DNA from: Bacteroidia bacterium
GTDB taxonomy: Bacteria; Bacteroidota; Ignavibacteria; UBA10030
Reading direction: 5' to 3'
Assembly (NCBI GenBank): GCA_022180565.1
Contig: BQML01000002.1
Location: 273,824 to 337,823 of the forward strand
DNA: 64,000 nt
Shown: positions 9,654 through 51,100 of the stretch, piece by piece
Layout of the letters: each line of letters opens with the position of its first letter
Position numbering within the stretch: the stretch's first letter is position 1
Position numbers and translations under genes: made by a program
The notes under the pieces: model-generated
What the model saw: the letters and a program-made list of their open reading frames with translations, nothing else
The model's database searches: none
What the model was told of the DNA's origin: nothing

Positions 9654-10132
9654 GAAGCCGAGGCGGGTGGTTCGGGAGGGGAACGGTGAAGCAGGTGACC
9701 GATGCGTTCAAGAACCTCAGGGGGCGCTTCGGCCTCGAACAGCGGAAACAGTTCCCGCTCTTCCTTGCGGATATGGCCGTCCAAAAGTTGTGCGAAGTTC
9801 TTGAGTTGTTCCGGCGTCTTTTCGGGATCCGGATTCCTGAACCCCTCGGCAAATTCTCTCATGAGCCGGTGCTCATTCAGGAGATCTTTCACCTGACCCC
9901 TCCCTGACGGAACATGTTCTATCACCTGCGGGAACAAGGATTCCTCTTCGGCCTGAAAATGAGGGATGAGGTGTTCACGGAAGAACTCCACGACAAACCG
10001 TGCCTGCCCGGCGGGGTCTTTTGGCCACCCGCTCAGGATCGTTCTCTCCGCGGTGCGGATTTGCTCGGCCAGCAGGAGACCATGATAGTGGTCCTGCGAG
10101 AGTGGAACGAGGCTTTTGTGACGTCTGGCCAT
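9650..10132 (-). CDS. hemerythrin-like (HHE cation-binding) domain protein
   Basis: H…HxxxE motif spacing (…SQDHYHGLLLAEQIR…, …HLIPHFQAEEESLFP…, …HIRKEERELFPLFE…); 160 aa. Confidence 0.7.
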   Translation of the reverse strand: MARRHKSLVPLSQDHYHGLLLAEQIRTAERTILSGWPKDPAGQARFVVEFFREHLIPHFQAEEESLFPQVIEHVPSGRGQVKDLLNEHRLMREFAEGFRNPDPEKTPEQLKNFAQLLDGHIRKEERELFPLFEAEAPPEVLERIGHLLHRSPPEPPASAS

Positions 10133-32352: not shown

Positions 32353-34944
32353 ATGACCACGCCCCTCATGCGCCAATACCGGCAGGTGAAGGCAAAGTAC
32401 CCGGATACGATCCTCCTGTTCCGGATGGGCGACTTCTATGAAACCTTCGAAGACGATGCAAGGACCGCCTCCACCGTTCTCGGCATTACGCTGACGAAAC
32501 GCGGGAACGGGGCAGCGGGCGAGGTGCCTCTGGCCGGATTTCCGCACCATGCTCTTGAATCCTACCTTCCAAAACTCCTGAAAGCCGGTCATCGCGTTGC
32601 GGTCTGTGAGCAACTCGAAGATCCCAGGTTCGCGAAAGGAATCGTCAAACGGGATGTCGTCGAAGTGATCACGCCGGGTGTCGCTTTTTCTGAGAAAGTG
32701 CTCGACAGGCGACAAAACAACTATCTCGCCTGTGTTGCTCTCGGCTCCGCTGTGGCAGCGGCCGACGATAACGCAGGGCTCGCTTTTGTTGACGCCTCGA
32801 CGGGAGAATTCAATGCAGGGGAACTGCCGCTGAGGCTCTTGGCCGAGCACATCGCCAACCTGCACCCTTCCGAATTGCTCGTCCAGAAACGCGACCGTGC
32901 CGCGCTTGAGGGTATCCTGAAAGGAGCCTTCAACGGAATCGTCAGTGTATTGGATGATTGGGTGTTCAACGCGGGTTATGGATACGACCTCCTGCTCCAG
33001 CACTTTAAGACACAATCGCTGAAGGGATTCGGACTCGAGGATTTGAAGCAGGCAGTCGTGGCCGCGGGAGCCGTGATGAACTACCTCCAGGAGACGCAGA
33101 AGGCCAACCTGCCGCATATTACGCGCATCTCGCTCTATGAGCCGGGTGAAGCCATGGTGTTGGACGGTCCTACCAAGCGGAATCTCGAAATCGTGGCGAC
33201 CATGCAGGGGGAAACTACCGGCACGCTCTTTTCGGTGATCGACAGGACACGAACCCCGATGGGCGGCAGACTGCTCAACAAATGGGTTCATATGCCTCTT
33301 CGCAATCTCGCCGGCATTCGCGCACGCCTGCAGGCGGTGAAGGATCTGGTTGAGCACCCCCGGGAGAGAGAAGCTCTGGGAATGATCTTGGACGATATCG
33401 GCGATCTTGAGCGGCTCACAGCGAGAGTGGCGACAGGACGCGCGATCCCACGGGAACTTCGCCAACTCGGTACATTTCTTTCCCTCCTGCCAAAACTGAA
33501 ATCGGTCCTGAAAGACTTTCGGGCTTCTGAGCTCATTCACCTCAGGGATGAGATCGATCCGCTCGAGGGAGTTGTCGAAAAAATCCGGTCTGCACTGAAC
33601 GATGATCTTCCGGCCTCACTTGCGGAGGGTGGCGTGATCCGGAAGGGTTATCATGCGGAACTTGATGAGCTTCGGACTCTGGCCTTCAGCGGAAAGGAAT
33701 GGATCGCTCGTTTGCAGGAGGATGAACGTCGCCGAACGGGGATTCCGTCGCTCAAGGTTGGCTACAACAGTGTCTTCGGCTACTATCTGGAAGTGACCAA
33801 CACGCACAGGGAGAAAGTGCCGGCGGAATACATCCGTAAGCAGACCCTGACAAATGCCGAACGCTACGTTACGCCGGCTTTGAAGGAATACGAAGAAAAA
33901 ATTCTGCATGCCGAGGAAAAGATCCTCGCTTTGGAAACGATGCTGTTTGACGGGCTCCGCCGGGAGGTGTCGTCGTTTGCCGCGGTGATTCAACGGAACG
34001 CACAGAGTGTTGCAACAGTCGATTGCTATGCATCGCTTGCCGACATGGCGGTAGAGCAGGAGTATGTGTGTCCTGAAGTGGACGATTCGACTGTGATCGA
34101 GATCCGGCAGGGGCGTCACCCTGTGATCGAGCGCTTTCTCCCGCCGGGAGAGCGCTACACACCGAACGACACGCTTCTTGATGCGGCGACCGATCAGATC
34201 CACATCATCACCGGCCCCAACATGAGCGGGAAATCAAGCTATCTGCGGCAGGTAGGACTGATCACCCTCATGGCACAGGTCGGAAGCTTCGTCCCGGCCC
34301 GTTCGGCGAGGATCGGTCTGGTCGATAAGATCTTCACTCGCGTCGGAGCCAGTGACAACATCACATCCGGGGAAAGCACGTTCCTCGTTGAGATGCACGA
34401 GGCGGCGAAGATCGTTAACACGGCGACTGCCCGGAGCCTCATTCTGCTCGACGAAATCGGTCGGGGGACGAGTACTTTTGACGGTATCAGCATCGCCTGG
34501 GCGCTCACGGAGTATCTCCATCAGCGCATTGGAGCGCGGACCCTGTTTGCGACCCACTATCATGAGCTCAACGAACTGGCGCAGATCCTGCCGCGGGTGA
34601 GGAATTACAAGGTGGATGTTCGGGAGTACGAAGACAAGGTGATCTTTCTGCACAGGGTCGTTGCGGGATTTGCTGACCATTCCTACGGCATTCAGGTGGC
34701 GCAAATGGCCGGTCTACCGCCGGAAGTCATTGAACGCGCGGGGAAGATCCTGAAGACTTTGGAAAAACAAGGGTCGGAGGGCGCGCGAGGCGGAAGACAG
34801 GAGATGCAGATGACTTTGTTCGAAGCGAAGGATGACGAGCTCCGGAAGGAAATCCGGGAACTGAATGTCGATGCCATGACGCCCCTTGAGGCGCTCAGAA
34901 AACTTGCCGAACTCAAGGAACGCCTGAAGGAGGATCGAAGATGA
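32353..34944 (+). CDS. mutS: DNA mismatch repair protein MutS
   Basis: Mismatch-binding N-domain (TPLMRQYRQVKAKYPD…FRMGDFYETF), Walker A GPNMSGKSS, …STFLVEMHE…; 863 aa. Confidence 0.95.
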   Translation: MTTPLMRQYRQVKAKYPDTILLFRMGDFYETFEDDARTASTVLGITLTKRGNGAAGEVPLAGFPHHALESYLPKLLKAGHRVAVCEQLEDPRFAKGIVKRDVVEVITPGVAFSEKVLDRRQNNYLACVALGSAVAAADDNAGLAFVDASTGEFNAGELPLRLLAEHIANLHPSELLVQKRDRAALEGILKGAFNGIVSVLDDWVFNAGYGYDLLLQHFKTQSLKGFGLEDLKQAVVAAGAVMNYLQETQKANLPHITRISLYEPGEAMVLDGPTKRNLEIVATMQGETTGTLFSVIDRTRTPMGGRLLNKWVHMPLRNLAGIRARLQAVKDLVEHPREREALGMILDDIGDLERLTARVATGRAIPRELRQLGTFLSLLPKLKSVLKDFRASELIHLRDEIDPLEGVVEKIRSALNDDLPASLAEGGVIRKGYHAELDELRTLAFSGKEWIARLQEDERRRTGIPSLKVGYNSVFGYYLEVTNTHREKVPAEYIRKQTLTNAERYVTPALKEYEEKILHAEEKILALETMLFDGLRREVSSFAAVIQRNAQSVATVDCYASLADMAVEQEYVCPEVDDSTVIEIRQGRHPVIERFLPPGERYTPNDTLLDAATDQIHIITGPNMSGKSSYLRQVGLITLMAQVGSFVPARSARIGLVDKIFTRVGASDNITSGESTFLVEMHEAAKIVNTATARSLILLDEIGRGTSTFDGISIAWALTEYLHQRIGARTLFATHYHELNELAQILPRVRNYKVDVREYEDKVIFLHRVVAGFADHSYGIQVAQMAGLPPEVIERAGKILKTLEKQGSEGARGGRQEMQMTLFEAKDDELRKEIRELNVDAMTPLEALRKLAELKERLKEDRR

Positions 34945-35444
34945 CAAGAGAGCATTTGGAAGAATTATTTGCTTACGATCGTTGGGCCACTGACAAACTG
35001 CTTGATGTGGTCGGGACGCTTTCCGAAGAACTGTACGCGAAGGATCTCGGAACAAGTCATGGCGGAATCCGGGGTACTTTGATTCATACATACGGGGCCG
35101 GGGAGATCTGGCTGAAGAGATGGGGAGGGGAGAGTCCGAGCGTGCTCATCACCGAGGAGGACATTCCCACCTTCTCCCTGCTCCGCAAGAAATGGACTGC
35201 TCTTCAGGAGGGACACGCGGCGTTCCTCAAGGGTGTGAGCGATGCGCGTCTTCAGTCTTCTCATCCATACAGGAACCTCAAAGGCGAACTCTTTACGACG
35301 GAGCTTTGGAGACAGATGCAGCATGTTGTGAACCATGGAAGCTATCACCGCGGACAGGTAGTGGCGATGCTGCGCCAGCTCGGGGTGAAACCGCCGACGA
35401 CGGATTTGATCTATTTCTACCTGGAGCGCCGAAAGCATGGCTGA
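34941..35444 (+). CDS. DinB-family (DinB_2/DUF664) four-helix-bundle metal-dependent protein
   Basis: His triad pattern (…HTYGAGEIW…, …VVNHGSYHRGQV…); ATGA overlap with the mutS stop. Confidence 0.75.
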   Translation: MTREHLEELFAYDRWATDKLLDVVGTLSEELYAKDLGTSHGGIRGTLIHTYGAGEIWLKRWGGESPSVLITEEDIPTFSLLRKKWTALQEGHAAFLKGVSDARLQSSHPYRNLKGELFTTELWRQMQHVVNHGSYHRGQVVAMLRQLGVKPPTTDLIYFYLERRKHG

Positions 35445-36054
35445 CAAGCCGATACCGCTGCGCAGACATCGACTCCGGCACTTGCCAGACCTTCGCGTCC
35501 GGCCCTCCTTCTTTGAGAGGAATTTTTCAGCGGGCTGTTCCATGGTGAACTGCAATGCCGACTGCTGCCGCTATGGTGTGATGATCGATCCGGAGGAACG
35601 CGATCGGATTCTTGCACATCAGGATCTCGTTCTACGGTACATGGAGCCGCATCAGGTGACCGATCCGGACCAGTGGTTCGAAGAAGAGCATCAGGATAAG
35701 GACTTTCCTTCAGGACGTGCGGTGGGTACGCAGGCCACGGAGCACGGATGCGTGTTCCTGGATTCGTCAGGTCGCTGTGTCCTTCAAAAGGCCGCCATGG
35801 GGGAGGGAATGGAGAAGTTTTTCCTGAAACCGTTTTTTTGCATTGCCTATCCGGTGACGATCGAAGATGGCGAGCTTGTGATCGATGATGCCGAGTTCGT
35901 GAACCGGACGGCCTGCTGCACTGTGGTCAAAGGCGGGAGCAGGACGGTGTTTGACGTTTGTGAAGAGGAACTTGGCTTTGTCCTGGGGGAGGAGGGTCTG
36001 AGCGAGTTGAAGGAGTTGTCGAAGAGAAAAGAGGAGCGAGGTTCCCGCGCCTAA
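35437..36054 (+). CDS. Cys-rich DUF3109-like protein (putative metal/Fe-S binding)
   Basis: CxxxxCxxxCC cluster (…CSMVNCNADCCRYG…) plus a second Cys group (…CVFLDSSGRCV…, …TACCTV…); ATGGCTGA overlap with the upstream stop. Confidence 0.5.
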   Translation: MADKPIPLRRHRLRHLPDLRVRPSFFERNFSAGCSMVNCNADCCRYGVMIDPEERDRILAHQDLVLRYMEPHQVTDPDQWFEEEHQDKDFPSGRAVGTQATEHGCVFLDSSGRCVLQKAAMGEGMEKFFLKPFFCIAYPVTIEDGELVIDDAEFVNRTACCTVVKGGSRTVFDVCEEELGFVLGEEGLSELKELSKRKEERGSRA

Positions 36055-36182: not shown

Positions 36183-36572
36183 ATGCCATTCGACGTCCAG
36201 GTCGATGCGGACCACGCTCGATGCACGGTTCGCGGGTATGGTTCATTCGATTTCAAACAGGCGGTCGATGCCCTTCTTGCAGTCACTCGTGATTCCCGTT
36301 ATGCGCCCGGCATGGCGCTTCACTTCGACGTCCGGAAAATGGAGTTCGTCCCGACGCCCGATGAATCCTGGAAGCTCGCCCTGACCCTCCGGAGCCTCCG
36401 TAAAACTCTCACCGGAAAGATAGCCGTTGTAGTCTCCGCTCCCTTGCATTACGGCGTGGCCCGCGTCATCTCCACGTATGCAGCGGTCGGCGGTATTCGG
36501 ATGAAACCGTTCTTGAAGGAACAGGAGGCGATTGACTGGTTGACTGCTGACGACCCCGGGGAAGATGAATGA
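36183..36572 (+). CDS. hypothetical 129-aa protein (possible STAS/SpoIIAA-like fold; unverified)
   Basis: Good GAGGAG Shine-Dalgarno; C-terminal …GKIAVVVSAPLHYGVARVISTYAAVGGIRMKPFLKEQEAIDWL… loosely resembles STAS C-terminal helices; no catalytic motif. Confidence 0.45.
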   Translation: MPFDVQVDADHARCTVRGYGSFDFKQAVDALLAVTRDSRYAPGMALHFDVRKMEFVPTPDESWKLALTLRSLRKTLTGKIAVVVSAPLHYGVARVISTYAAVGGIRMKPFLKEQEAIDWLTADDPGEDE

Positions 36573-36661
36573 CGTTTCCCAGTCAAACCCGGTGGGTTTG
36601 ATTCTCGCCACAAAAACCGCTATTTTCTTCGTTGTGACGCAGTTTTTCCCAAGGACCGGAT

Positions 36662-38815
36662 TTGTTTCGCGCAATCCAGACTCGCATTGAATTCAAAATT
36701 CTGCTCCTCATTGTCGCCGTCCTTGTCGGCGGGTTTGGCTCCTTCGTTGTCCTGACCATCCAGAAGGAATCCGAGGCTCTTCTCACCCAAGCGCAGGAAA
36801 AGCTCCATCTCTTTTCTGAGTCCGTGAGCGCGGGGATCCGCAACGTGATGCTCACGGGCAAGTCCCCGTTCGCCGTCGCCTTCGTCAACGATACGCGGGA
36901 AAACCTACCGTTTGCAACGATCACCATCTACGATCGTTTCGGCCGCGAGGTTTTCCTGCGGGAAGGCGAAGGGGTAGCCTACAATGTGAAGGATGAGTGG
37001 CTGGGGAAGACCCTTGCATCGGGCACCATGACGTCGACGTCCGTGAACGTGAATGGTTCGGAGCTTTACGCCCGGTACGAGCCCCTGCGTAACCGGTCCG
37101 AATGTTGGCGATGCCACGACCCGCGGCAGCCCCTCAGAGGCGCCCTCCTTCTCGGGCTTCGCACGGAACCGATACGCCCTTCGGCGGGGATTGGAGTGCA
37201 CGACCTGGCCGGAACAGTAAGCCAATTCGTGGCCTCTGCATTCAGAACGATCATGCTTGGCGGACAGGGGGAAATGATGGATACGCTGACCGCACGTGTC
37301 CGCGAAATTCCGGGCGTCCGGCGTGTTCAGGTCTATGCGAAGGACGGGTGGCTTGCCTTCGGTCCCGAAGAAGAGGAATTGGCGGAGGACGATATCCTCC
37401 GGGTGGTCCGGAAAGGATCGGCGGACCTTTCCTTTGAGGACCGGGGATCAATCCTGAGGGTGTTTCTTCCATTGCTCAACGAAGATCGGTGCCAGGTGTG
37501 CCATGGGTCCCGGCATCCCATGCGCGGCGTGCTCGTAGCCGATTTCGACAAGCCCGTGTTGTGGCAAATGGTCCGAAGAGGAAAGGAAGCCATTGCGGCC
37601 GTCTTGCAATCGACGGTTTTCGAAGGCTTTCGCAGTATTATGCTGGTGGGCCGTGCCAGCTCGACCCGCTACTACCTGGACGCTATTCGCGCGAACGCTC
37701 TCGTGGGTGTTGTCCGGGTCTTCGATGATGAGAGGAATGAGCGGTTTCTGAATCCGCCATTGCGCGAGCGGCCGGAAATCCGCGAAGTCGTTGAAACAAA
37801 GAAACCCCTCCAGTTTATGGAAACCGTGAATGGAACGGAATACCTTGTCCGTCTGAGTCCACTGCCGAACGAGGTCCGGTGTTATTCCTGCCACGGAAAG
37901 AATCACGATATTCGGGGGGTCGTCGAAGTCACGACTTCGATGGCTGCGATCAACGATGCCGTTCGGGCAAACAAAATGCGGTCGGCAGCTGTTGGACTCG
38001 GGACGATCGTGTTGACATGGATCGTTCTTCGCCAATTTATGAAAGCGATGGTTGTCAAACCCGTCCAGGCTATCGGCCAGGTCGCCGAGCGCGTTGGGAA
38101 CGGAGATTTCACGGTCCAGGCCCATATACGGTCGAAGGACGAAATCGGGAACCTGGGCCAAAGAATCAATGATATGATTCGGGGCCTGCGCGAGAGGCTT
38201 CGTCTGCAAAAGTTCGTTTCCGAGCAGACCGTGAGGGCTGTCCGCGCGGCGGATGCGGAGGGGATCAGGCTGGGGGGCGAGCGAAAAAGAGCCACGGTGT
38301 TCTTTTCCGACATCAGGGGATTCACGGCATTTGCTGAGAGCCGGGATCCGGAGGAAGTGGTTGCCGTGCTGAACCGATGTCTTTCCCGGCAGGCCCGAAT
38401 TGTGCGCAGTCACGGAGGTGATATTGACAAGTATGTGGGTGATGAGCTTGTTGCCGTGTTCGAGGGTGAGGGAATGGCGGCGAGGGCTTTGAGCGCGGCA
38501 AGGGACATTCAAAAAAGTCTTGCCGAGCAGGATGAGGGGAGGTCTCGCCTCACGGTGGGAATCGGCATCAACACGGGAGACATGGTTATGGGGGCGATGG
38601 GAAGCGAAGATCGCATGGCCTTTACGGTCATCGGCGACAGCGTCAATCTCGGCTCCAGATTGTGCGCGGCGGCAAAAGGAGGGCAGATTCTGATCTCAGA
38701 AGAGACGGCTCGGGAGCTCGGGGAAGTTCCCGGATGGCTCAGAAAGCTCGAGCCTCTGCAGGTAAAAGGGAAGCAGGAGCCTGTTGTAGTGTATGAGGTG
38801 CTTCCGACAGAATGA
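36662..38815 (+). CDS. membrane sensor adenylate/guanylate cyclase (class III CYCc) with HAMP domain and a periplasmic domain bearing three CxxCH heme-binding motifs
   Basis: TM1 (res 12-32); three repeated modules each containing CxxCH followed by RG (CWRCHDPRQPLRG, CQVCHGSRHPMRG, CYSCHGKNHDIRG); TM2 plus HAMP; C-terminal cyclase motifs (…FFSDIRGFT…, …KYVGDELVAVF…, …IGINTGDMVMG…); TTG start. Confidence 0.85.
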   Translation: MFRAIQTRIEFKILLLIVAVLVGGFGSFVVLTIQKESEALLTQAQEKLHLFSESVSAGIRNVMLTGKSPFAVAFVNDTRENLPFATITIYDRFGREVFLREGEGVAYNVKDEWLGKTLASGTMTSTSVNVNGSELYARYEPLRNRSECWRCHDPRQPLRGALLLGLRTEPIRPSAGIGVHDLAGTVSQFVASAFRTIMLGGQGEMMDTLTARVREIPGVRRVQVYAKDGWLAFGPEEEELAEDDILRVVRKGSADLSFEDRGSILRVFLPLLNEDRCQVCHGSRHPMRGVLVADFDKPVLWQMVRRGKEAIAAVLQSTVFEGFRSIMLVGRASSTRYYLDAIRANALVGVVRVFDDERNERFLNPPLRERPEIREVVETKKPLQFMETVNGTEYLVRLSPLPNEVRCYSCHGKNHDIRGVVEVTTSMAAINDAVRANKMRSAAVGLGTIVLTWIVLRQFMKAMVVKPVQAIGQVAERVGNGDFTVQAHIRSKDEIGNLGQRINDMIRGLRERLRLQKFVSEQTVRAVRAADAEGIRLGGERKRATVFFSDIRGFTAFAESRDPEEVVAVLNRCLSRQARIVRSHGGDIDKYVGDELVAVFEGEGMAARALSAARDIQKSLAEQDEGRSRLTVGIGINTGDMVMGAMGSEDRMAFTVIGDSVNLGSRLCAAAKGGQILISEETARELGEVPGWLRKLEPLQVKGKQEPVVVYEVLPTE

Positions 38816-38845
38816 CATTGTACCACAGACAAACAGGAAAGGACA

Positions 38846-40078
38846 GTGAATCAACGCAGGCTTTACAGGACGATTGAAAGCTTTGCATCGGAGCATTTTC
38901 GGACTGACAAGGAGATTCTGAAACATGTCGTCAACGAGATCGTCAAGGATGAAAACATCGACATTAAAGGCGGTCGGATCTGGCAGTATGAACCTTCGAC
39001 GCAATCGTACAGGCTCATCCACCAGATCGGTGTGATCGAGCGTCTGGATCCTGGATTCAGAATCCCCGTTGCGACCTATCCCATCTTTCTGAAACTCTCG
39101 GATCAGCGTTCGCTGATCGCGAATGAAACCAACGCCTACCTCAGAAAGAAGGGGATCGTGAAGTACTCAGTCACCGGCGTCGGGGAAAAGCTTCCGTACG
39201 GCAAGGGCAAGGTGTACCAGTATCTTCTGGCGTTCAACTCGGACAACCTTGATCAGAGCCTCCTGGCGACGCTGAACATCATCAGCGTAGCGGTTTCATC
39301 TCTCCTCGGACGGAGGCGGCTTGAGCAAAAGGCACGGATGCTGGCCCGCGATATCGACAAGGCTCGGGAGATTCAGCAAATCATCCTCCCTCCCCCGGCC
39401 CTCAAGTTCCATTCGTACGACGTTTATGGCTTGTCAAAGCCGGACAGGATTGTGGGGGGAGATTTCTTCGACTATCTTCAGGATGAGGATGAGGATGATC
39501 GTCTGCCCATTGTCATCGGCGATGCCGCGAGCAAAGGACTGAGGGCGGCGTCTCAGGCCCTCTACATCGTCGGCGGAGTGCGGATGGGAGTGAGTTACCA
39601 TGCCAAGATTACCACGCTCATGTCCAGACTAAATCGCCTGCTTCATGCAGCGTTTGCCGAGGATCAGTTCGTTTCAATGTTCTATGCCGAGCTGTTCAGG
39701 GATAAACGCGGCCTTGTTCTCTATGCGAATGCGGGTCACAACAGCCCCTTTCTCTACCACGCGAAGGACAACAGCATCGAGGTGCTGGAGCCGACCGGAC
39801 AGGTGATGGGGCCGTTTCCGGAGGAGAAATATCTCGTTGAAAATTCCTATCTTGAGCCGGGGGACGTCCTCTTGATGTATACCGACGGCATCAGCGAGGC
39901 TCGGGACGTGTCGGGTGAAGTATATGGTGAGGAACGGATCCAGCAAAGACTCAGGGACACGGCGTCGCAGACAGCAGAGCAAATCTGCGTCGGGCTCCTG
40001 GAGGACGTCCAGAGGTTTGCGCGGGGTTCGGAGGAAACGGATGATAGAACGATTGTTGTGGTCAAACGCCGCCAGTAA
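38846..40078 (+). CDS. GAF domain-containing PP2C-family serine phosphatase (SpoIIE/RsbU-like)
   Basis: N-terminal GAF-like region, C-terminal PP2C motifs (…GGDFFDY…, …IGDAASKG…, …MYTDGISEARD…, …DDRTIVVVK…); GTG start with AGGAAAGG Shine-Dalgarno. Confidence 0.85.
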   Translation: MNQRRLYRTIESFASEHFRTDKEILKHVVNEIVKDENIDIKGGRIWQYEPSTQSYRLIHQIGVIERLDPGFRIPVATYPIFLKLSDQRSLIANETNAYLRKKGIVKYSVTGVGEKLPYGKGKVYQYLLAFNSDNLDQSLLATLNIISVAVSSLLGRRRLEQKARMLARDIDKAREIQQIILPPPALKFHSYDVYGLSKPDRIVGGDFFDYLQDEDEDDRLPIVIGDAASKGLRAASQALYIVGGVRMGVSYHAKITTLMSRLNRLLHAAFAEDQFVSMFYAELFRDKRGLVLYANAGHNSPFLYHAKDNSIEVLEPTGQVMGPFPEEKYLVENSYLEPGDVLLMYTDGISEARDVSGEVYGEERIQQRLRDTASQTAEQICVGLLEDVQRFARGSEETDDRTIVVVKRRQ

Positions 40079-40102
40079 TCCACCATTTCCGAGGGAACGT
40101 GT

Positions 40103-41731
40103 ATGACGGAACAAAAGAAAATCGGCCAGGTCATTGCAGTCAACAGTGGGGCTTTGACCGTGCTTCTTGATGATGCGGTCGGCTCGCTGAAACGCGAAAT
40201 CGGCGGGAAGGTCTATTATATCGGTCAACTCGGGAGCTACGTGCTCATTCCCGTGGGGAAGCAGATTGTCGTGGCGATGGTGGCCGAGTTACGGAAATCC
40301 GACATTCCGATCAACGGCGATGTTCGCCAGAGAGTACAGCTTGTTGTAACCCTTGTCGGCACCGTCAAGGCAGGACGATACGAGCGCGGCGTGTCCATTC
40401 TTCCGCCCATCGATGCGCCGGTCTTCTTTGCGGAGGATCAGGACCTGACGGCCGTTTTCTCTATCTTTCAGAAATTCGGGTTTTCTATTGGACAGCTTTC
40501 GATGTTTGAGAAAGAACGCGCCTACATCGACCCAAACAAGCTGTTTAGCAAGCACATTGCGGTTGTGGGATCGAGCGGCTCGGGAAAGTCATGCACGGTG
40601 GCATCCATCCTCCAGAAGGTAGCGACGTTTCCCGACACGAACGTTATCCTCATCGACATCCACAACGAGTACCACGCGGCCTTCGGTGCCAACGCGAACT
40701 ATCTGCCGATTGCCGATCTCGAATTGCCCTACTGGCTGATGAACTTCGAGGAGATCCAGGAGATGTTCGTAGACGAACGGGACGAGAACGCTTCAAGCCA
40801 GATCACCGTCCTCAAGGACCTCATCGTCGCCGGAAAGAAAGGAAAGAATCCCGACCTGGCGGATTTCATCACGGTCGATACGCCTGCCTATTTCGACATT
40901 GCCGAGGTCCGGGCCCGAATGCAGTTTCTCGATACGGAGAAGGTCACGGGTATGGGCGCGGCAGGCGCGACGAAGGAAGGGCCGTTCTACGGGAAGTTCA
41001 CGCGGTTCCTCGTTCGCCTCGACAGCAAACTGAACGACGCGCGGTATGAGTTCATGTTCAAGCCGAAGCAATTTGTCGCGACGTCGTCCCTGAGCGACTT
41101 TCTGCAAAAGATTTTCGGTCCCGGGGGAAGCGCCAAGGTAACGCTGATGGACATGAGCGGCGTCCCGTTCGACATCGTCAACACCGTTGTGTCCCTGTTG
41201 GCACGCGTCACGTTCGACTTCAATTTCTGGAACCCCCACCGCCGTGATTTCCCTGTTCTCCTTGTATTTGAGGAGGCGCACAATTATCTGCCGGCGACGG
41301 GAGAATCCACGAAGGCGGCTCGCAGGACGGTGGAACGGATCGCAAAGGAGGGAAGGAAATATGGGGTCAGTTGCATGATCGTGAGCCAGCGCCCGGCCGA
41401 AGTCTCGGAAACCATTCTGTCCCAATGCAGTAACTATGTCGTCCTTCGTCTGACCAATCCCGTAGACCAGAACTACGTCCGGAAGCTGGTTCCGGACACG
41501 TTTGTGGGTTTGGTGGACGTGCTTCCTTCCCTTCGCCAGGGTGAGGCGCTGGTCGTGGGAGACGCCCTTCCTATGCCCCTCCGCGTACAAATCGATTACC
41601 CCAACCCCGAACCGGAAAGCGGAGATATCAAGTTCTTCGAGAAGTGGAAGGAAAGCGAGGCCAAGACGTTCATCCAGGACGTTGTGCAGAGATGGTGGAA
41701 GCAAGAACGAAAAGCCGCCGGGGAGGCGTAG
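40103..41731 (+). CDS. HerA-like ATPase (HAS-barrel plus FtsK/HerA-superfamily P-loop domain; DUF87/COG0433)
   Basis: N-terminal beta-rich HAS-barrel-like segment ([18 protein letters not shown]…YVLIPVG…), Walker [14 protein letters not shown], Walker [11 protein letters not shown], …[10 protein letters not shown]…; 542 aa; GAGGGA Shine-Dalgarno. Confidence 0.8.
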
Positions 41732-41789
41732 GGCGGAACAGAGCACCATTCAGGAATGTTGTACGATCCGCGGGAACAAGGAGGCTCCT

Positions 41790-42737
41790 ATGCTGATCAA
41801 ACGACCGTCTGACATCCCTTCATCCGAGATCACTCCGGAATCCGTGTATCGGAATCGCCGAACCTTTCTCAAAACCGCCGCGATAATGACCGCGGGTACA
41901 GCGGCAGCTTTTGCACTCCCGCGTTTTTCGGAGCCACAGGATCCACACTATCGGCGGCCTCCTGCCGGTCCCTTCAATACGGATGAAGACCTCACATCGT
42001 ACAAAGATATCACGACGTATAACAATTTCTATGAGTTCGGGACGGACAAGGATGATCCATCTGAGTACGCTGGAAGCCTGAAACCCCGGCCCTGGAAGGT
42101 GAGGGTTGACGGTGAAGTCGAGAAAGCCGGCCTTTATGATCTGGATGACCTCCTCAAGGGCATATCCCAGGAAGACCGCGTCTACCGTCTGCGCTGTGTT
42201 GAGGGGTGGTCCATGGTCATTCCGTGGCTCGGATTTCCGATCTCAGTCCTCTTGAAACGATTCCAACCAACCTCGCGGGCGAAGTACGTTGAGTTTACGA
42301 CGCTGAACGATCCACAGCAAATGCCGGGACTGAGCCGTCCCGTGCTTGACTGGCCCTATGTGGAGGGACTCAGGATAGATGAAGCGATGCATCCGCTCGC
42401 GATTTTTGCGGTGGGTCTCTACGGCAAACAGCTCCCGAACCAGAACGGCGCTCCCCTGCGCATCGTTGTTCCCTGGAAGTACGGATTCAAAAGCTGCAAA
42501 TCGATTGTGCGGATTCGGCTGACGGAGAAGGAGCCTCTTCCGACGTGGGTGCGGGCGGCTCCCCATGAATACGGTTTCTATTCGAACGTGAATCCTGATG
42601 TCGACCATCCGCGTTGGAGCCAGAAGTTCGAACGCCGGATCGGCGAGTTCCGGAAGCGTAGAACACAGCTCTTCAACGGTTACGGGGAACAGGTGGCGGG
42701 GCTGTATGCCGGAATGGACCTCAGGAAGCATTTTTGA
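41790..42737 (+). CDS. msrP: protein-methionine-sulfoxide reductase catalytic subunit MsrP (YedY; molybdopterin)
   Basis: Tat-like signal ([20 protein letters not shown]), sulfite-oxidase-family Mo domain (…[17 protein letters not shown]…); AAGGAGG Shine-Dalgarno; the upstream ORF extension overlapping the HerA gene was rejected. Confidence 0.9.
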
Positions 42738-43414
42738 CCAGCCTGACGCGCACTGGATTTCTTCCTGTGACTTCCAGCAAATACGTCCGCTTCATCTTCA
42801 AGCCTCTTGTGCTTGTTGCTTGTCTCCTTCCATGTTTCTGGCTGGGGTGGAACTGGTATCACGACAATCTGAGCGCGAATCCCATCGATGATGTCACCGA
42901 TACCACGGGCACGTGGACCCTCCGGTTTCTTATGATCACCTTGGCCATCACCCCTGTGCGGAGGATCAGCGGATGGAACCGTCTTCTGCAATTCAGGCGA
43001 ATGATCGGCCTCTTTGCGTTTTTGTACGGAACTCTCCATCTCTTCACGTACCTGTATTTGGATCAGTTCTTTTTATGGGAAGAGATCCTAGCCGACATTC
43101 CGAAACGACCGTTTATTACCGTCGGGTTCCTCAGCTTCGTACTGATGATTCCCCTGGCCGCAACATCGACTGATCGGATCACGAAGTGGATCGGTGGCAA
43201 GCGGTGGAATCGTCTCCATAAGCTCGTGTATGTCACGGCAATAGGCGGCGTCATCCACTATTTGTGGTTGGTGAAGGCCGATCTACAGAGACCCCTGATC
43301 TATGGCGGGATTCTGGCGCTCCTCCTGGGCGTGAGGCTTTGGTACGCACTGAAGCCGTTTCTTGTTGGAAGAATGAAGAGGGAAGGGGCTCGGAACGAGG
43401 TCGCCGGGGGATAA
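42734..43414 (+). CDS. msrQ: protein-methionine-sulfoxide reductase heme-binding subunit MsrQ (YedZ)
   Basis: 6-TM ferric-reductase-like protein aligning along its length with MsrQ; start is TTG at 42734 or possibly GTG at 42767. Confidence 0.85.
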
Positions 43415-43533
43415 GCGCTCAGGCATCCTCTCGTTCTGCTTGTGACAAATCGCCTTGCGTCACTGCGGTTTCTTCTCTATATTCGGCAATGTTTTTCGTG
43501 CCATCAACTCACGCCACACCCTCGGGGACTATC

Positions 43534-44004
43534 ATGAAACCGGTTTTCCATTTTTTTGTACGCGCCTCTTTGATCCTTCCTTTTCTCCTTCTTCCGGGAT
43601 GTTCGCCGTTGGCCTTGAAGCCGGCGGACTTTGGCTGGCCCGTGGAAAGCGTTTTGAAGTCAGACGCATCAGGCATGGTTCAGGAAAACAGGTATCAGCT
43701 CATTTTTTCGATCAAGCCCATGGTGTTTGAGGAGAAAGAAGACTCAACCGATGTCGGCGGATTGAGTGTGAGGGTCATCCGGGACCAGGCCGGCTATTAC
43801 TACATAACATCGCCCGGCTTCAAACATGTGTACGTGTTCGGAACGGGGGATGGCGCTCTCATTCTGGAGAAGAAGATCCTTGTTTCAGAAAAGGGTCTCC
43901 AATCGCCGGCTTTCAACGCCAGACCGCCCTATATTCAGCTCCTGAGCACCGGTGAGAAACCTCGCCTGCTCTCCAAGAGCGGCATTCACGAAGGAGGACG
44001 CTGA
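43534..44004 (+). CDS. lipoprotein (LPGC lipobox), hypothetical
   Basis: Signal peptide ending LLLPGCS; 156 aa; 1-nt overlap (TGATG) with the next gene. Confidence 0.55.
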   Translation: MKPVFHFFVRASLILPFLLLPGCSPLALKPADFGWPVESVLKSDASGMVQENRYQLIFSIKPMVFEEKEDSTDVGGLSVRVIRDQAGYYYITSPGFKHVYVFGTGDGALILEKKILVSEKGLQSPAFNARPPYIQLLSTGEKPRLLSKSGIHEGGR

Positions 44005-45263
44005 TGATCTCGTACAGGAACTTTGCCCTGACTCTGCTGATTGCGCTCCCTGCCGTCGTCGTTTCTCAGGTACGTTCCGACTATGAAATCGTCCGCGCCT
44101 TCGAGAATGAGTCTGTGGCCATTGCCACGTCAATTGAGGCAGCCAATACCACAGTGGAGATTGTGGATGTGGAGTCCCGCATTCTCGAGCTGGATAGCAC
44201 ATACCGTGAGTATCGGGCTTTGATCGACCGAGCACTGTACCCGGACGGATTTGCAGGTCGGCTGATGAAGCTGCGCGGACAGTTAACGTATGCCAAGGAC
44301 AAGATCACGATCATTGAAAGCCAGTATGAGCGGATTACGGAACTGGAGTCGCAGGTTCGTGAGCTGAGTCAGCAGGTGGAAAACCTTGCCGGGGAGAATG
44401 CAAAGATGCTGGGGGAAATGAAGCGGTTGAGGGATTCCAAGACGACGATCGATTCTCTCAACGCCGTCATTATCAAACTTCGTCAGGGACTCCGCCAACG
44501 CGATGAGCTAATCTTCGCCCTTGTGGACAGTCTCTTCATGCAGTATGATAAGAATGTTGACGCCATGACCGACCGTGAGAAGCGCGGTGTTGCTGCCCGC
44601 CTGGAGCGGCGCAATGTTTTTTCAGGCATTCGCCAGTCGATCGAGGATAACGCCCGCTTCCTGGAAGCCACCGAACTCACCGGGAATGATATTCTGACAC
44701 TGTCCGAGGAGCATGAATCGTTCGCTTCAAAGTGGAGGGGTCTGGGGAAGAAGCTGGCTGAGGTGTACGGTGGAACGCGCACGAAGCGCGCTGCCGAGCT
44801 TGCAACGATCGACACGATGCTGAACAGTTGGAAGGGTAAGCTCAACGGGTTGTACTGGAGGACCTTGAACAATGTCTTTGCCAGGACCAGCGTTCAGGTT
44901 GCACCGTTCTCGAGCGGAAAGGAATTCTTTGCCAACCTGGGAGCATATCTCGACGAGGAGATCCGGAAAGCGAGGGATGAAAAGGACGGCCAGAGATATT
45001 TTCGATACGAAGCGTTTGCTGACTCCATATGGAACAGCCATGTCGTTCCCGAATGGATCCCATCGATGGTTCGCACGGGAGGACTCACTGAGGAGGAAGT
45101 GAAGATTCTCCAGGCCAAAGTGGATGAATGGGAGGATATTGTGAGTCCCCCGTTGACAACCGTTTACATAGTCATCGGGATTGTGATGCTCGTTGTGGTG
45201 TTGTATCTCTACAGGAGATACATGCGAACACGGGAGGGAGTGAAGACGGCACCGGGTGCGTGA
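44004..45263 (+). CDS. coiled-coil protein with N-terminal signal peptide and C-terminal transmembrane anchor, hypothetical
   Basis: Heptad-rich central region (…ELESQVRELSQQVENLAGENAKMLGEMKRLRDS…), C-terminal hydrophobic helix (…TVYIVIGIVMLVVVLYLY…). Confidence 0.55.
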   Translation: MISYRNFALTLLIALPAVVVSQVRSDYEIVRAFENESVAIATSIEAANTTVEIVDVESRILELDSTYREYRALIDRALYPDGFAGRLMKLRGQLTYAKDKITIIESQYERITELESQVRELSQQVENLAGENAKMLGEMKRLRDSKTTIDSLNAVIIKLRQGLRQRDELIFALVDSLFMQYDKNVDAMTDREKRGVAARLERRNVFSGIRQSIEDNARFLEATELTGNDILTLSEEHESFASKWRGLGKKLAEVYGGTRTKRAAELATIDTMLNSWKGKLNGLYWRTLNNVFARTSVQVAPFSSGKEFFANLGAYLDEEIRKARDEKDGQRYFRYEAFADSIWNSHVVPEWIPSMVRTGGLTEEEVKILQAKVDEWEDIVSPPLTTVYIVIGIVMLVVVLYLYRRYMRTREGVKTAPGA

Positions 45264-48171: not shown

Positions 48172-51100
48172 ATGAACCGAAATCAGAAACCGCTGGATTC
48201 CGCGTCGCAGGCAAGAACGCTCAGGCTCATCGAGCGAATAGCGCGCGCGGCTGTGAGAAAGCAGCACTTGGGACCGGTTATGCAAAAGCTTGCCGAGGGG
48301 CTGGTTTCGGATTTCGGCTTTTGTGCGGTTGTTGTCACCCGATACGATGAAAACACGCGAGCACTGAAGGCTCTCGGTGTCGCTCCCCGAGCGGTCGGCA
48401 ACGCGGTTGCAAAGATCGGTGGCGTCAAGGTTTCGGATTTCGAGCTGAGGGCGAGGACCGAAGCCAATCGCGTCCTGAAGGGCCTCATGAGAGGAAAGAC
48501 CTGGGTGGGACGAAACCTCAAGGACGTGTTCGAGCCCATGATCCCCGCGCGGCTGGCAAGGCGTTTCCAGGAAATACTGCATATCAAGTGCGCCTTGATG
48601 GCTCCTCTGCTCGGCGAACGGAAATTCCTAGGCACATTACTCGTCTGCACCGCGAACGATGAATTTACCAAGGAAGAACTTGCGGCCCTGCGTGTGATCA
48701 CGCATCACGCCGCCCTCGCCGCACGGCAGGCTCGTCTTTTGGAAGAAAATAAAACAAAGGCGAAGCAGTACCGGCTCCTGAACGAAGTTGACAGCCAGAT
48801 CCTGGAGCAGAAGCAATTACAGAAGGTTCTCCGTGCCATTGTCTCCAACATCCATCGCGTGATTCCCTGTGATCTTGCAGGCGTGTACCTCCATGATCCC
48901 CGAAAGAAAGCCATGGTCTATGCGGTGGCGTGGCCCCGTTCAGAGTATTCCCTGAAGCTTCGTCATTTTGAATTCCCTATCGGGACGGGCGTGATCGGCA
49001 CGGTCGCGCGTACGCGCAAGGCAGAGATTCTCGACCACGCCGAGCTGGATCCGCGGTCGGTCTATCCTCCCGGAAGTGTCCCCGACCTTGAACACCTCTT
49101 GTGTCTCCCCCTTGTGGCAGGGAGACGGTTGCTGGGGGTGCTCTATGTTGCTCGGTACCACGACAGGCCTTTTGTCAGGGCCGACCTTGAAGTGGCGGGC
49201 CAGTTCGGAGAGAAGTCAGCCCTCGCGATAGAAAACGCTCAACTTTTTGCCCATCAGCAGGCGAGAAGGAGGGAAGTGGAGAGTCTCCAGCAGAGTGGCG
49301 CGAGGATCTCTGGTTCGCTGGAATTGCAGAACGTCCTCGACAGGATTCTCAAGGAAGCTGTCGGTCTCCTTCCCTCCGCTTCCCGTGCATCGCTTGCTTG
49401 TGGAAGAGGCCCGCGGCACGCTGACGCTTGCCGCCGGGACGCGTCATGGGGGCCGCTCCAAGGACCTGTGGAACGGGATCCCGACGTCGGCTTCAAAGGC
49501 GGTCCGACTGAGGAGAAGCATTATCACGGACGATTCCAGCGGCTCGCGAGGGCTCAGACACCCGACGATCGCTGTTCCCCTCATTCTCAAAGACAGGGTT
49601 CTCGGTGTTCTGATCGTTCAGGCCCGGGCCGGAAGCACGTTCTCAACGGGTGACGTGGATCGCCTCGAACTGTTCGCCCTTCACGCCGCGCTGGCAGTGC
49701 GCAACGCTCACCTGCACGCTTCACTTCAGCAGGAGATCAAGAAGATCAAGCTCCTGCGCGATATCAAATCGATTGCCCGCGTGGGCTTCTCATCGGAAGC
49801 CTTCCTCAAGAACGTTTGCGATCTCATCGTCAAGTCGTACGGCTTCCATCTCACAGCAATCCTCCTCCTTGATCCTGCCCGCCGCTCCCTGCGATTGCTT
49901 GCCGCCTCCGGATCCGAAGCCCGCCGGATCAAGCCGGGTTACGAGCAATCCCTCGACGAAGGCGTCGTGGGCTGGGTAGCTCGGACGGGAAGAGTCCGCC
50001 TCGTGCAGGACGCAAGCAAGGACCGGTATTTCATCAACAAGAACAATCTTTCCACCCGGTCCGAGCTGTGCATTCCGATTTTCATGCCCTCTGGCGTTGT
50101 TCTTGGTGTCATCAATGTCGAAAGCAACCGCACCGACTCCTTTAAGGAAAGTGACGTCCAGGTCCAGTTGGCAGTCGCATCCGAAATCGCGGGAGCGTTT
50201 GAGGAGCGAAGACTGTTGACAGCGCTGAGGGACTCTGAGCGGAAGTTCCGCCGGTTGTTCGAGGAATCAAAGGATGCCATCTACGTGAGCACGATGGGCG
50301 GGAGACTCCTGGATGCGAATCTGGCGGCCGTGGACCTCTTTGGTTTTCGTGATAAGGAAGAGTTTCTTCGCGTGGAAATTGGAAAGGACCTTTACGCAGA
50401 CCCCCGTGACCGGAAGAAGCTCATCCAACGTCTTCAGCACGAGGGGTTTGTGAAAGACCTGGAATTGCGCCTGAAGAGGAAGACCGGTGAACCGATTCTG
50501 GTCAACGCGAGCATTACCGGGATCCGAGATGCGCAGGGATCTCTCGTGGCCATGCAGGGCATTCTCCATGATGTGACGCGTCAGAAAGAAGACGAAAGGA
50601 GGATTCACGAATCAGAGGAAAAATACCGGAGTTTGGTAGAGGGATCGCTCGTCGGCGTTTACATTATTCAGGAAGGCCGGTTTGCATTTGTGAACCAGCG
50701 GTTCGGGGAGATCTTCGGATATTCGGTTGATGACATTGTGAAGAATCTCACAGTGGAAGAGCTTGTGCATCCTGATGATCGCAGGATGGTGATGGAGAAC
50801 ATCAGCCTGAGGCTGGCGGGTCCTGTGAAAACACTGCGGTATACCTTCCGTGGTGTGCGGAAGAATGGCGGGCAGATCGATGTCGAAGTGCTGGGGACCA
50901 AGTCTGTGTATCAGGGCCGACCGGCCATCATTGGAACGCTTCTTGACCGCACACAGGAATACCTCCAGCAAAAAGAGATTGACGCGTGGAGACGCCGTTA
51001 CGAGCTGATCATCGCCTCCTCGGCGCAGATCGTGTACGAATATGACATTTCGACGGGGGCCATCCTGTGGGGTGGAAGCGTGGAACAGGTACTGGGATAC

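Follow-up and report, generated by a model that had tools for sequence, protein, structure and literature searches.

A GAF-PP2C phosphatase and a HerA-family ATPase form a conserved gene pair in Ignavibacteria, apparently an offshoot, fixed in the chromosome, of a known immune module

The HerA-family ATPases of anti-phage defence systems bind a partner enzyme via their HAS domain and switch it allosterically. In HerA-DUF4297 it is the N-terminal HAS domain of HerA that makes the contact, with mutual activation of the two proteins, and in SIR2-HerA (Nezha) the SIR2 NADase, an enzyme of ~340-410 aa, is encoded immediately upstream of a ~540-600-aa HerA on the same strand. A HerA-family hexameric ATPase is also part of archaeal and Deinococcus HerA-NurA end resection. 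PP2C/RsbU phosphatases, for their part, classically act on STAS proteins, and partner switching of the RsbU/SpoIIE type involves an RsbW/SpoIIAB-type kinase and a sigma factor. Haem-c Cache sensors (sCache_heme/Tll0287/GSU0582-type) are built from a periplasmic CxxCH module followed by a transmembrane segment, HAMP and a signalling output. Fused to such outputs they act as NO sensors, and Guanylate_cyc is listed among their output domains (PMC12889525).

The window analysed here, a stretch of 64,000 nucleotides, contains four ORFs, all on the + strand and separated by spacers of 89, 30 and 24 bp in order, which combine elements of these systems. As described in the initial annotation, they lie between a block with mutS and a DinB-family gene and the periplasmic methionine-sulfoxide reductase pair msrP and msrQ (41787-43414). 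The features are as follows.

32353-36054, + strand: conserved upstream context of mutS, DinB-family and DUF3109/Rv0495c-like genes (Pfam)
32353-34944, + strand: mutS (Pfam MutS)
34941-35444, + strand: DinB-family gene (Pfam)
35437-36054, + strand: DUF3109/Rv0495c-like gene (Pfam)
36183-36572, + strand: stand-alone STAS-fold protein, 129 aa, SpoIIAA-like/DUF3478-like (structure prediction)
36662-38815, + strand: putative tri-haem-c membrane class III adenylyl cyclase, 717 aa (Pfam and motifs)
37103-37117, + strand: CWRCH, cyclase sensor module 1 (motif)
37490-37504, + strand: CQVCH, cyclase sensor module 2 (motif)
37880-37894, + strand: CYSCH, cyclase sensor module 3 (motif)
about aa 12-33 of the cyclase: TM1, hydrophobic segment judged by eye
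about aa 441-462 of the cyclase: TM2, hydrophobic segment judged by eye
38048-38194, + strand: cyclase HAMP, aa 463-511 (Pfam)
38288-38782, + strand: cyclase catalytic domain, aa 543-707 (Pfam Guanylate_cyc)
38846-40078, + strand: GAF-PP2C (SpoIIE/RsbU-type) Ser/Thr phosphatase, 410 aa, first core gene of the pair (Pfam and predicted structure)
40103-41731, + strand: HerA-family hexameric P-loop ATPase, 542 aa, second core gene and hub of the module (Pfam DUF87 and HerA_C)
about 41787-42737, + strand: msrP, downstream context (Pfam Oxidored_molyb)
42734-43414, + strand: msrQ, downstream context (Pfam Ferric_reduct)

All the domain calls made previously hold, by Pfam for the cyclase, the PP2C and HerA, and by structure prediction for the GAF domain and the STAS fold, both of which are invisible to Pfam at threshold. 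No terminator-like site was found on the + strand between 36.0 and 42.7 kb, GC is flat across the window (0.54-0.60) and the neighbours of the four genes are housekeeping genes. In a Pfam scan of 44 window ORFs, 8 of which had no match, neither defence genes near the locus nor NurA, SIR2, DUF4297, an RsbW-type kinase or a sigma factor were detected, in agreement with the absences reported earlier, and the locus holds no Ser/Thr kinase. The composition of the cluster, which the initial annotation could not match to any described system, is indeed not described in the literature that could be searched. Because of its fixed core-chromosome position, amid genes for repair and stress (mutS, DinB-family, DUF3109, msrPQ), we read the module as a housekeeping device; the locus resembles a fixed signalling/stress module rather than a mobile defence island.

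The ATPase matches Pfam DUF87 (PF01935; E=2e-33, 116.7 bits vs a cut-off of 23.2) and HerA_C, and its HAS-type region (about aa 1-125) is followed by a RecA-like core. This central DUF87/HerA domain, with Walker A GSSGSGKS (K162) and Walker B VFEEAH (E390/E391), both invariant in the orthologue alignment, places it among the HerA/FtsK-superfamily P-loop ATPases. It scores 539 bits over its full length on the PADLOC HerA model PDLC04105, a model without curated cut-off, but stays below the anti-phage cut-offs of NCBIfam (HerA_antiphage_2, 427.6 bits vs 850; HerA_antiphage, 184 bits vs 800). The HerA equivalog models also score weakly, at 131-144 bits against cut-offs of 800-970 (helicase_HerA, 130.8 vs 970), so that the locus, with no NurA match among the scanned ORFs, differs from HerA-NurA despite sharing the ATPase family and a DNA repair neighbour, mutS. 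The nearest solved structure is 9C1M, the HerA of HerA-DUF4297 (E=7e-113, nearly full-length alignment), and the Walker motifs align with K149 and E438/E439, the residues mutated in that protein.

Orthologues 51-96% identical to the window HerA form an Ignavibacteria-wide clade, every other match being at 42% identity or less. The next relatives are the HerAs of the SIR2-HerA and DUF4297-HerA anti-phage systems; SIR2-HerA loci hold the closest of them, at 37-42% identity. In all 10 outgroup loci sampled, the gene immediately before HerA encodes SIR2 or DUF4297, and it is this effector slot that the PP2C fills in our locus. HerA, which had been annotated as an orphan in the effector position, is thus better described as the hub. 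The likeness to SIR2-HerA extends to an enzyme of similar size immediately upstream on the same strand and to the conserved Walker A and B motifs. On the contrary, GAF-PP2C replaces the SIR2 NADase, the Ignavibacteria HerAs are shorter (531-549 aa in the tree loci vs 553-612), and the patchy, mobile spread typical of defence islands is not seen in their clade, which is highly conserved, occupies a core-chromosome site and had no member found on viral contigs. The differences from HerA-DUF4297 are the absence of a DUF4297/Cap4-type nuclease (PADLOC model PDLC02187 matches none of the four proteins) and a HAS region poorly conserved within the clade. This region is ~30% identical between clades, and the two PP2C-linked clades are no closer to each other than to unlinked ones, so that no conserved surface for docking PP2C is apparent; the putative PP2C-HerA contact is proposed by analogy. 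In our reading the module either descends from the immune HerA modules or is their sister.

Comparison of about 170 related loci, a check suggested in the initial annotation, showed that the conserved core consists of GAF-PP2C followed by HerA only, syntenic across Ignavibacteria, with PP2C immediately upstream on the same strand (gaps of 9-81 bp or a 4-bp overlap). HerA is immediately downstream in about 25 of 25 loci having a PP2C of at least 60% identity and sufficient downstream sequence, and also in 9 loci where the PP2C is at about 50% identity and the flanking genes are different. In a neighbour-joining tree, PP2C precedes HerA in both branches of the deepest division of the HerA clade, the deepest-clade loci L016 and L018 keeping the pair with peptidase S46, BNR and DUF1684 genes upstream; we read the pair as ancestral to the Ignavibacteria-wide clade. 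The same tree groups loci by shared gene arrangement, and the clade, present throughout and highly conserved, is compatible with vertical descent. The order mutS-dinB-DUF3109-pp2c-herA recurs in L002, L091, L094, L099-L102 and others, DUF3109 overlapping the PP2C start by 4 bp in many relatives, and herA-msrP-msrQ in L001, L005, L007, L008, L085, L088-L090, L097, L110-L112 and L165. Adjacency is not obligatory, since about 31 of 40 loci whose PP2C is at about 50% identity, and also two HerA sub-clades, show no linkage of the two genes; PP2C remains near mutS/dinB even where HerA has left, and HerA is found elsewhere beside sucD/ndk or two-component genes. Moreover, the pair sits inside a long housekeeping block shared with L002 (lpxD-lpxC/fabZ-lpxA-panB-surE-mutS-dinB-DUF3109), so that part of the adjacency may reflect inherited gene order and not selection.

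In the phosphatase, a GAF domain (about aa 20-135, nt 38903-39250) is followed by a long linker helix (aa 138-174) and by a PP2C domain matching Pfam SpoIIE (PF07228; aa 217-408, nt 39494-40069; 145.9 bits vs a cut-off of 25). Residues D206, D209, D226, D347, D399 and D400, which we take to be the metal-binding aspartates, are invariant in 18 orthologues, and the enzyme is predicted to be catalytically competent. No PADLOC model matched the protein, and neither a kinase nor a phospho-substrate for the PP2C was identified. The proposal that the GAF domain is a cNMP receptor stands as regards the fold, but motif inspection found no NKFDE-type cNMP-binding motif, and the domain is equally conserved in many genomes without the cyclase, so that cAMP may not be its ligand.

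The cyclase sensor is composed of three tandem modules of about 130 aa, each with a CxxCH motif (aa 148, 277 and 407; spacing 129-130 aa), and matches Mcp40H-20_sensor (PF21563; 110.4 bits over three stretches) and Tll0287-like (PF11845; 32.4 bits), ahead of HAMP and Guanylate_cyc (PF00211; 74.5 bits vs a cut-off of 21.9). It can thus be assigned to the haem-c Cache/Tll0287/Mcp40H-20 sensors, with a predicted extracytoplasmic position and putative haem-c attachment. The layout from CxxCH module to output is that of the described sensors, which have one haem module instead of three. Aligned to Cya2 and CyaB, the catalytic domain presents FSDIRGFT, DKYVGDE (Lys), FTVIGDSVN (Thr, Asn) and GSR, presumably providing the metal-binding Asp of FSDIRGFT and VGDE, the Lys/Thr specificity pair and the Asn/Arg transition-state residues (SVN..GSR); judged by these residues, it is a probably competent class III adenylyl cyclase. 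The PADLOC PycC models match it at up to 98.5 bits, a similarity that we ascribe to the general relatedness of class III cyclases. The family (about 97 clusters) is confined to Ignavibacteria-type genomes. When orthologues were sampled without bias, the cyclase adjoined HerA in five of the six cyclase-centred look-ups, in two orders, cyc-pp2c-herA and herA-cyc, and eight further cyclases, going by contigs of equal length, appear to share contigs of <9 kb with PP2C or HerA matches. In one whole clade the cyclase is downstream of HerA with no PP2C nearby, and most PP2C-HerA loci have no cyclase, which is therefore the rarer accessory. A self-contained second-messenger relay from the cyclase to GAF-PP2C had been suggested, but the four genes do not make up one closed unit: the conserved pair and the link of the cyclase to the locus survive, while the STAS gene falls outside.

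Indeed, although the fold loosely suspected for the 129-aa protein is borne out, its gene was found only in the window and in the closest genomes, L001 and L085, and is missing from >100 other PP2C loci. About 130-140 bp separate it from the DUF3109 gene upstream in all three, and its identity is 58-59%, its neighbours being at 77-90%. It is 2.3 kb upstream of PP2C in the window, is separated from it by a glutamate dehydrogenase gene and the cyclase in L001, and by 6.5 kb including opposite-strand genes in L085. The STAS gene is a lineage-specific insertion, an unrelated neighbour outside the conserved module.

Among the other explanations, the gene order might be merely inherited: four genes without functional ties would share a core-genome block conserved in Ignavibacteria, PP2C serving as a general regulator, HerA as an ATPase for DNA repair or translocation and the cyclase as a redox sensor in its own right. 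The lpxD-to-DUF3109 block common to L002, the permanence of PP2C by mutS/dinB after the loss of HerA, the other neighbourhoods of HerA and the negative HAS-domain comparison all agree with this explanation, which we hold to be somewhat unlikely, because the pair survives amid different flanking genes in the deepest clade, the gaps are tight and the cyclase family occurs almost only beside HerA in two different orders, making inheritance alone hard to sustain. A new type of anti-phage defence, in which PP2C would be the effector like SIR2 in SIR2-HerA and the cyclase would contribute a nucleotide signal of the Pycsar/CBASS kind, draws on the PADLOC score of HerA, its nearest solved structure, the effector slot held by PP2C and the PycC matches. 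We regard it as improbable: HerA is under the anti-phage cut-off, the clade and its site are conserved in a manner fitting vertical descent, no GC anomaly, neighbouring defence gene or viral-contig member was found, and the PycC matches are generic. Besides, a periplasmic sensor is unsuited to detecting phage inside the cell, and, at variance with Pycsar, the window locus holds no effector with a cNMP-binding domain and thus none activated by cNMP.

A partner-switching relay, in which cNMP from the cyclase would act on GAF-PP2C to yield a dephosphorylated STAS protein and, through it, HerA or another output, appears very improbable. The window does have a SpoIIE-type PP2C whose N-terminal domain is a sensor, together with a true STAS fold, whose family keeps a Pro-[Ser/Thr] at the helix 2 N-cap (29 of 40 members have S or T), which we take to correspond in structure to the phospho-serine site of SpoIIAA and RsbV. 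Nevertheless, kinase and sigma factor were not found in the window, the STAS gene is rare and apart from PP2C in both relatives, and the conserved partner of the phosphatase is the HerA ATPase. It could finally be supposed that PP2C targets the cyclase, stripping a regulatory phospho-Thr from its HAMP domain, as a Cache_heme-HAMP receptor has been described in which a HAMP threonine is phosphorylated by an operon-encoded Ser/Thr kinase in an NO-enhanced manner (bioRxiv 10.64898/2026.05.25.727664), and in the window the gene of a haem-c-HAMP protein stands 30 bp ahead of that of a Ser/Thr phosphatase. With no Ser/Thr kinase in the locus, most PP2C orthologues lacking a cyclase neighbour and one cyclase clade lacking a PP2C neighbour, we give this the least credit of all.

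Our preferred explanation, held tentatively at a probability of roughly 45%, is that the two-gene GAF-PP2C-HerA operon is a real unit for housekeeping stress-signalling or repair control, to which the cyclase was added here, the STAS gene being unrelated. The analysis shows which genes are present, their folds and catalytic motifs, the patterns of synteny and the place of HerA in the tree; all ligands, protein contacts and outputs are inferred, as follows. In the window genome and a minority of relatives, where the periplasmic Cache_heme/Tll0287-type cyclase with HAMP stands directly upstream of the pair, the haem-c modules would sense periplasmic NO or redox state, and the signal would pass through HAMP to the cyclase, which would produce cAMP. 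The GAF domain would read cAMP or another small ligand and gate the PP2C, which may cooperate with the HerA ring or act on it, by analogy to the defence HerAs, the mutual activation of HerA-DUF4297 serving as the template for such cooperation. The pair thus appears to be a hitherto undescribed branch of a known immune module, one that is fixed in the chromosome and may in Ignavibacteria serve the control of stress signalling or repair.

The four + strand ORFs proposed in the initial annotation were found, separated by spacers of 89, 30 and 24 bp, at the following positions:

36183-36572, + strand, STAS-fold protein, 129 aa (ORF)
36662-38815, + strand, tri-haem cyclase, 717 aa (ORF and Pfam)
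38846-40078, + strand, GAF-PP2C phosphatase, 410 aa (ORF and Pfam)
40103-41731, + strand, HerA ATPase, 542 aa (ORF and Pfam)

Most of the domain assignments made there for the cluster were backed by Pfam, and two folds that are invisible or sub-threshold in Pfam (GAF and STAS) were settled by structure prediction. Pfam recognized SpoIIE/PP2C at aa 217-408 of the 410-aa protein, DUF87 and HerA_C in the 542-aa protein and, in the 717-aa protein, three stretches of Mcp40H-20_sensor (110 bits), a Tll0287-like match, HAMP and Guanylate_cyc. Three haem-c motifs are present in the cyclase (CWRCH at aa 148, CQVCH at aa 277 and CYSCH at aa 407), and their spacing of 129-130 aa indicates three tandem sensor modules, flanked by two hydrophobic segments, one N-terminal and the other immediately preceding the HAMP domain. 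Alignment with Cya2 and CyaB showed both metal aspartates, the Asn/Arg pair, and Lys and Thr as specificity residues; by the rules for class III cyclases, this set predicts an adenylyl cyclase. The Asp motifs of PP2C are invariant in the orthologue alignment and, judged from such residues, PP2C, HerA and cyclase all look catalytically competent. No + strand terminator-like site was detected inside the cluster by a promoter/terminator scan, in which counts were lower than the shuffled expectation and the promoter models were not of Bacteroidota type, thus hinting weakly at co-transcription.

The window HerA was matched over its full length by the PADLOC HerA models (539 bits), and scored 428 bits against the NCBIfam anti-phage HerA (curated cut-off 850) and 131 bits against the archaeal HerA (curated cut-off 970). 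The best solved structure was 9C1M, the HerA of Bacillus HerA-DUF4297 (E=7e-113), and K162 (Walker A) and E390/E391 (Walker B) of the window protein align with residues mutated in the 9C1M study. In a scan of species-representative genomes, 14 Ignavibacteria-type loci were 52-74% identical to the window HerA, while all remaining matches, from many phyla, reached at most 42%; relatives up to 96% identical occur in other collections. Among outgroup HerA loci, a SIR2 or DUF4297 gene lies directly upstream in all ten sampled. The identity gap, together with this linkage of the outgroup, therefore places the window HerA in a distinct clade, whose nearest kin are bona fide defence HerAs. The only HerA found on viral contigs was of the defence type, at most 38% identical over most of the protein. 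Locus L075 (10001-11686), in the complete genome of Ignavibacteriaceae cMAG.5, encodes a HerA with just 33% identity to that of the window, which groups in the tree with the SIR2-linked HerA of locus L082; Ignavibacteria can therefore also carry defence-type HerA, apart from the PP2C-linked clade.

Among the HerA-centred loci, the order cyclase-PP2C-HerA, whose synteny elsewhere the initial annotation had put forward as a check, was shared by the window and the related loci L001, L005, L006 and L007. PP2C precedes HerA without a cyclase in L002/L003, L008, L016 and L018, and HerA is followed by the cyclase without PP2C in L013 and L015; upstream of HerA lies a two-component block or another histidine kinase in L009, L011, L012 and L014, and sucD in L004 and L010. 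In a PP2C-centred metagenome scan, HerA was immediately downstream of PP2Cs of at least 60% identity in ≈25 of the ≈25 loci with enough downstream sequence (gaps of 19-81 bp); at 47-53% identity it was downstream in 9 and missing there in ≈31, and these HerA-unlinked PP2Cs are often still near mutS and dinB. The two-component genes found directly before HerA in one of its sub-clades (L009, 4007-9970; L012, 5930-9966; L014, 1775-5816; L011, 7630-9924) encode a HAMP-GAF hybrid histidine kinase of ≈960 aa and a REC-HisKA-HATPase protein of ≈375 aa, with an additional REC-HATPase and a DUF6901 protein in L009 and a REC-PAS kinase in L011. HerA thus recurs beside signalling enzymes, perhaps by chance in kinase-rich genomes.

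In a quick neighbour-joining distance tree the Ignavibacteria HerA clade was monophyletic, with its deepest split between clades I and II. Clade I HerAs are 51-53% identical to that of the window and all have PP2C upstream, within flanks (peptidase S46, BNR, DUF1684) differing from those of the window. Clade II comprises a herA-cyclase-GHL10 group, a lineage in which HerA neighbours two-component genes or sucD, and a large PP2C-linked group including the window. By parsimony on this tree, the PP2C-HerA pair would be ancestral and would have been broken up in two sub-lineages.

The tri-haem cyclase family counts ≈97 clusters, all of one architecture and all of Ignavibacteria type, compared with more than 120 clusters each of HerA and PP2C at 61% identity or above. 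Six cyclase-centred look-ups retrieved one cyclase-PP2C-HerA-msrPQ locus, four herA-(148 aa)-cyclase-GHL10 loci and one solitary cyclase, with a PP2C 30 kb off on the same contig and neither of them adjoining HerA; at least eight more cyclases appear, by a heuristic pairing of contigs of matching length, to share contigs shorter than 9 kb with PP2C or HerA matches. Where present, the cyclase adjoins the pair or HerA, with the solitary exception in one of the six look-ups. Its occurrence in the large PP2C-linked group is patchy (present in the window and L001, absent from the equally close L085 and L111), and the gene is therefore easily gained or lost. L001 (4612-9918) and L085 (1103-9233) encode HerAs equally close to that of the window (90%) and differ in gene content: the former holds STAS, glutamate dehydrogenase, cyclase and PP2C genes, whereas the latter has no cyclase and 6.5 kb of other genes from STAS to PP2C, suggesting that the cyclase has turned over recently. 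The arrangement of herA, tri-haem cyclase and a GHL10-family glycoside-hydrolase-like protein (≈585 aa, carrying a Por secretion tail) was seen in L013, L015, L166, L167, L169 and L170, with no PP2C nearby in any of the six; upstream lies a divergent Tex gene in L166, L167 and L170, an unannotated 695-aa ORF on the - strand in L015, a Pyr_redox gene in L169 and a 482-aa ORF on the + strand in L013.

Searches of PDB sequences with the 129-aa protein gave no significant match, and a fold search was needed to recognize STAS. Besides the window, L001 and L085 alone carry the gene (58-59% identity), which in each of the three genomes lies ≈130-140 bp downstream of the DUF3109 gene; glutamate dehydrogenase and cyclase genes separate it from PP2C in L001, and 6.5 kb including opposite-strand genes in L085. 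The family of the 129-aa protein consists of stand-alone proteins of ≈125 aa (384 representative clusters at E ≤0.001), in which Asp49 and Arg51 are nearly invariant and helix 2 has a Pro57-[Ser/Thr]58 at its N-cap (alignment A4).

The window is core chromosome. It carries hemB, citrate synthase, clpB, uppS, bamA, skp, lpxD, lpxC-fabZ and lpxA, as well as panB, surE, ddl, mutS, aconitase and carB, its GC content is flat (0.54-0.60), and the best homologues of all three large proteins come from Ignavibacteria/Bacteroidota metagenome-assembled genomes. Pfam identified MutS, a DinB-family protein and DUF3109 upstream of the cluster and MsrP/MsrQ-type genes downstream, neighbours that, as genomic context, suggest a theme of oxidative/nitrosative stress and repair. 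In many relatives mutS-dinB-DUF3109-PP2C-herA form one tight same-strand block, and in L091, L092, L094 and L099-L102 the DUF3109 gene (Rv0495c-like, ≈209 aa) and the start codon of PP2C overlap by 4 bp; DUF3109 may be functionally allied with PP2C. In the window, where the DinB-family and DUF3109 genes span 34941-36054, an insertion of the STAS and cyclase genes separates DUF3109 from PP2C.

Other features of the window were also recorded. The large subunit of carbamoyl-phosphate synthase (carB) appears as two + strand ORFs, 54833-56305 (490 aa; CPSase_L_D1/D2/D3 by Pfam) and 56442-58325 (627 aa; D1/D2 and MGS), with a gap of 136 bp, representing either a naturally split gene or a frameshift. 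Directly after msrQ, two + strand ORFs (43264-44004, 246 aa; 44004-45263, 419 aa) have no Pfam match, and unannotated ORFs of 151 and 422 aa occupy the same place in L001; this may be a conserved pair of uncharacterised proteins. The ORF at 49247-53758 encodes a hybrid sensor kinase of 1503 aa, in which several GAF and PAS domains are combined with HisKA, HATPase and a receiver domain, and L001 has a 1867-aa multi-GAF protein at the counterpart position after aconitase. The - strand ORF at 9650-10132, flanked by the genes for a glycosyltransferase and for citrate synthase, encodes a 160-aa hemerythrin-domain protein, possibly another O2/NO/redox binder.

The known systems closest in working are SIR2-HerA and DUF4297-HerA, which likewise combine an enzyme gene upstream with a HerA ring. 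The locus nevertheless differs from both, as it lacks SIR2 and DUF4297, its HerA scores below the curated cut-offs and PP2C-HerA does not have the distribution of a mobile system. As already remarked in the initial annotation, no NurA, SIR2 or DUF4297 was found among the window ORFs scanned; with NurA absent and low equivalog scores, the locus is no HerA-NurA system. A Pycsar/CBASS-like reading was rejected as well, because the cyclase is a class III enzyme with a periplasmic sensor and is not accompanied by any cNMP-dependent effector. The composition had been presented as apparently undescribed, and the literature searches indeed found no PP2C-HerA pairing and no relevant description of HerA with PP2C, SpoIIE or Ignavibacteria.

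We infer a composite signalling chain, to which we assign a probability of roughly 0.45. The three periplasmic haem modules would sense NO or redox state, HAMP would relay the signal to the cyclase for cAMP production, the GAF domain would read cAMP or another ligand and gate PP2C, and PP2C would act with, or on, the HerA ring. Haem-c Cache domains (DUF3365/Tll0287) fused to signalling outputs have properties of NO rather than O2 sensors, and Guanylate_cyc is one of their partner domains (PMC12889525); defence HerAs bind their partners via the N-terminal HAS domain, and assembly switches on both enzymes (PMC11291478; bioRxiv 2024.10.24.620088). Several observations count against the model: no NKFDE-type motif was found by motif search in the GAF domain (cAMP binding remains compatible), GAF is equally conserved where the cyclase is absent, the HAS region is only ≈30% identical between HerA clades, and in many lineages PP2C is not linked to HerA. 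In a conservation test for a docking surface, the HAS region showed no extra conservation between the two HerA clades linked to PP2C.

The gene order might instead simply be inherited without functional coupling, a reading favoured by the long housekeeping synteny block common to the window and L002; yet the PP2C-HerA pair persists in other contexts and the cyclase associates with HerA in two gene orders, which makes this explanation rather unlikely, if still a serious one. A true defence system with the phosphatase as effector appears improbable: the kinship of HerA and the position of PP2C in the effector slot speak for it, but the locus is highly conserved, sits in a core location, is absent from viral contigs and has a cyclase whose sensor is periplasmic. 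The STAS partner-switching relay proposed in the initial annotation has very little probability left. For this genome it is still sustained by the STAS fold and the conserved Ser/Thr at the helix-2 N-cap, but synteny of the STAS gene does not extend to other genomes and, as had been acknowledged, the window ORFs scanned include neither an RsbW-type kinase nor a sigma factor, leaving the locus incomplete compared with a partner-switching module. PP2C could conceivably act on the HAMP domain of the cyclase, as the phosphorylation of Cache_heme-HAMP receptors by their associated kinase would suggest by analogy, although we give this hardly any credence.

Going beyond the composite chain, it is possible, and we propose it tentatively, that a HerA scaffold of the immune type came to serve ligand-gated phosphatase signalling, whether by exaptation or as an ancestral use. 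GAF-PP2C and HerA would then constitute an unrecognised class of HerA-scaffolded enzyme complex. Its ring, a close relative of those in SIR2-HerA and DUF4297-HerA immunity, would have exchanged the toxic effector for a protein phosphatase under ligand control; PP2C-HerA would be a cellular signalling machine fixed throughout an entire bacterial class, wired in some lineages to a periplasmic NO/redox-sensing adenylyl cyclase. Either an immune module would have been exapted for physiology, or the pair would be the housekeeping ancestor from which immune HerA modules came. Related HerAs have so far been understood as platforms that assemble with and activate toxic effectors during phage infection. 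A sister clade paired with a regulated phosphatase, apparently vertically inherited within the core genome, would show that the HerA-plus-partner architecture is used beyond immunity, and would offer a natural case for interconversion between immune module and housekeeping machine. The locus also suggests what physiological output haem-c Cache (NO/redox) sensors coupled to cAMP might have and, with three genes and clear active sites, offers a tractable way into the signalling of the poorly studied Ignavibacteria.
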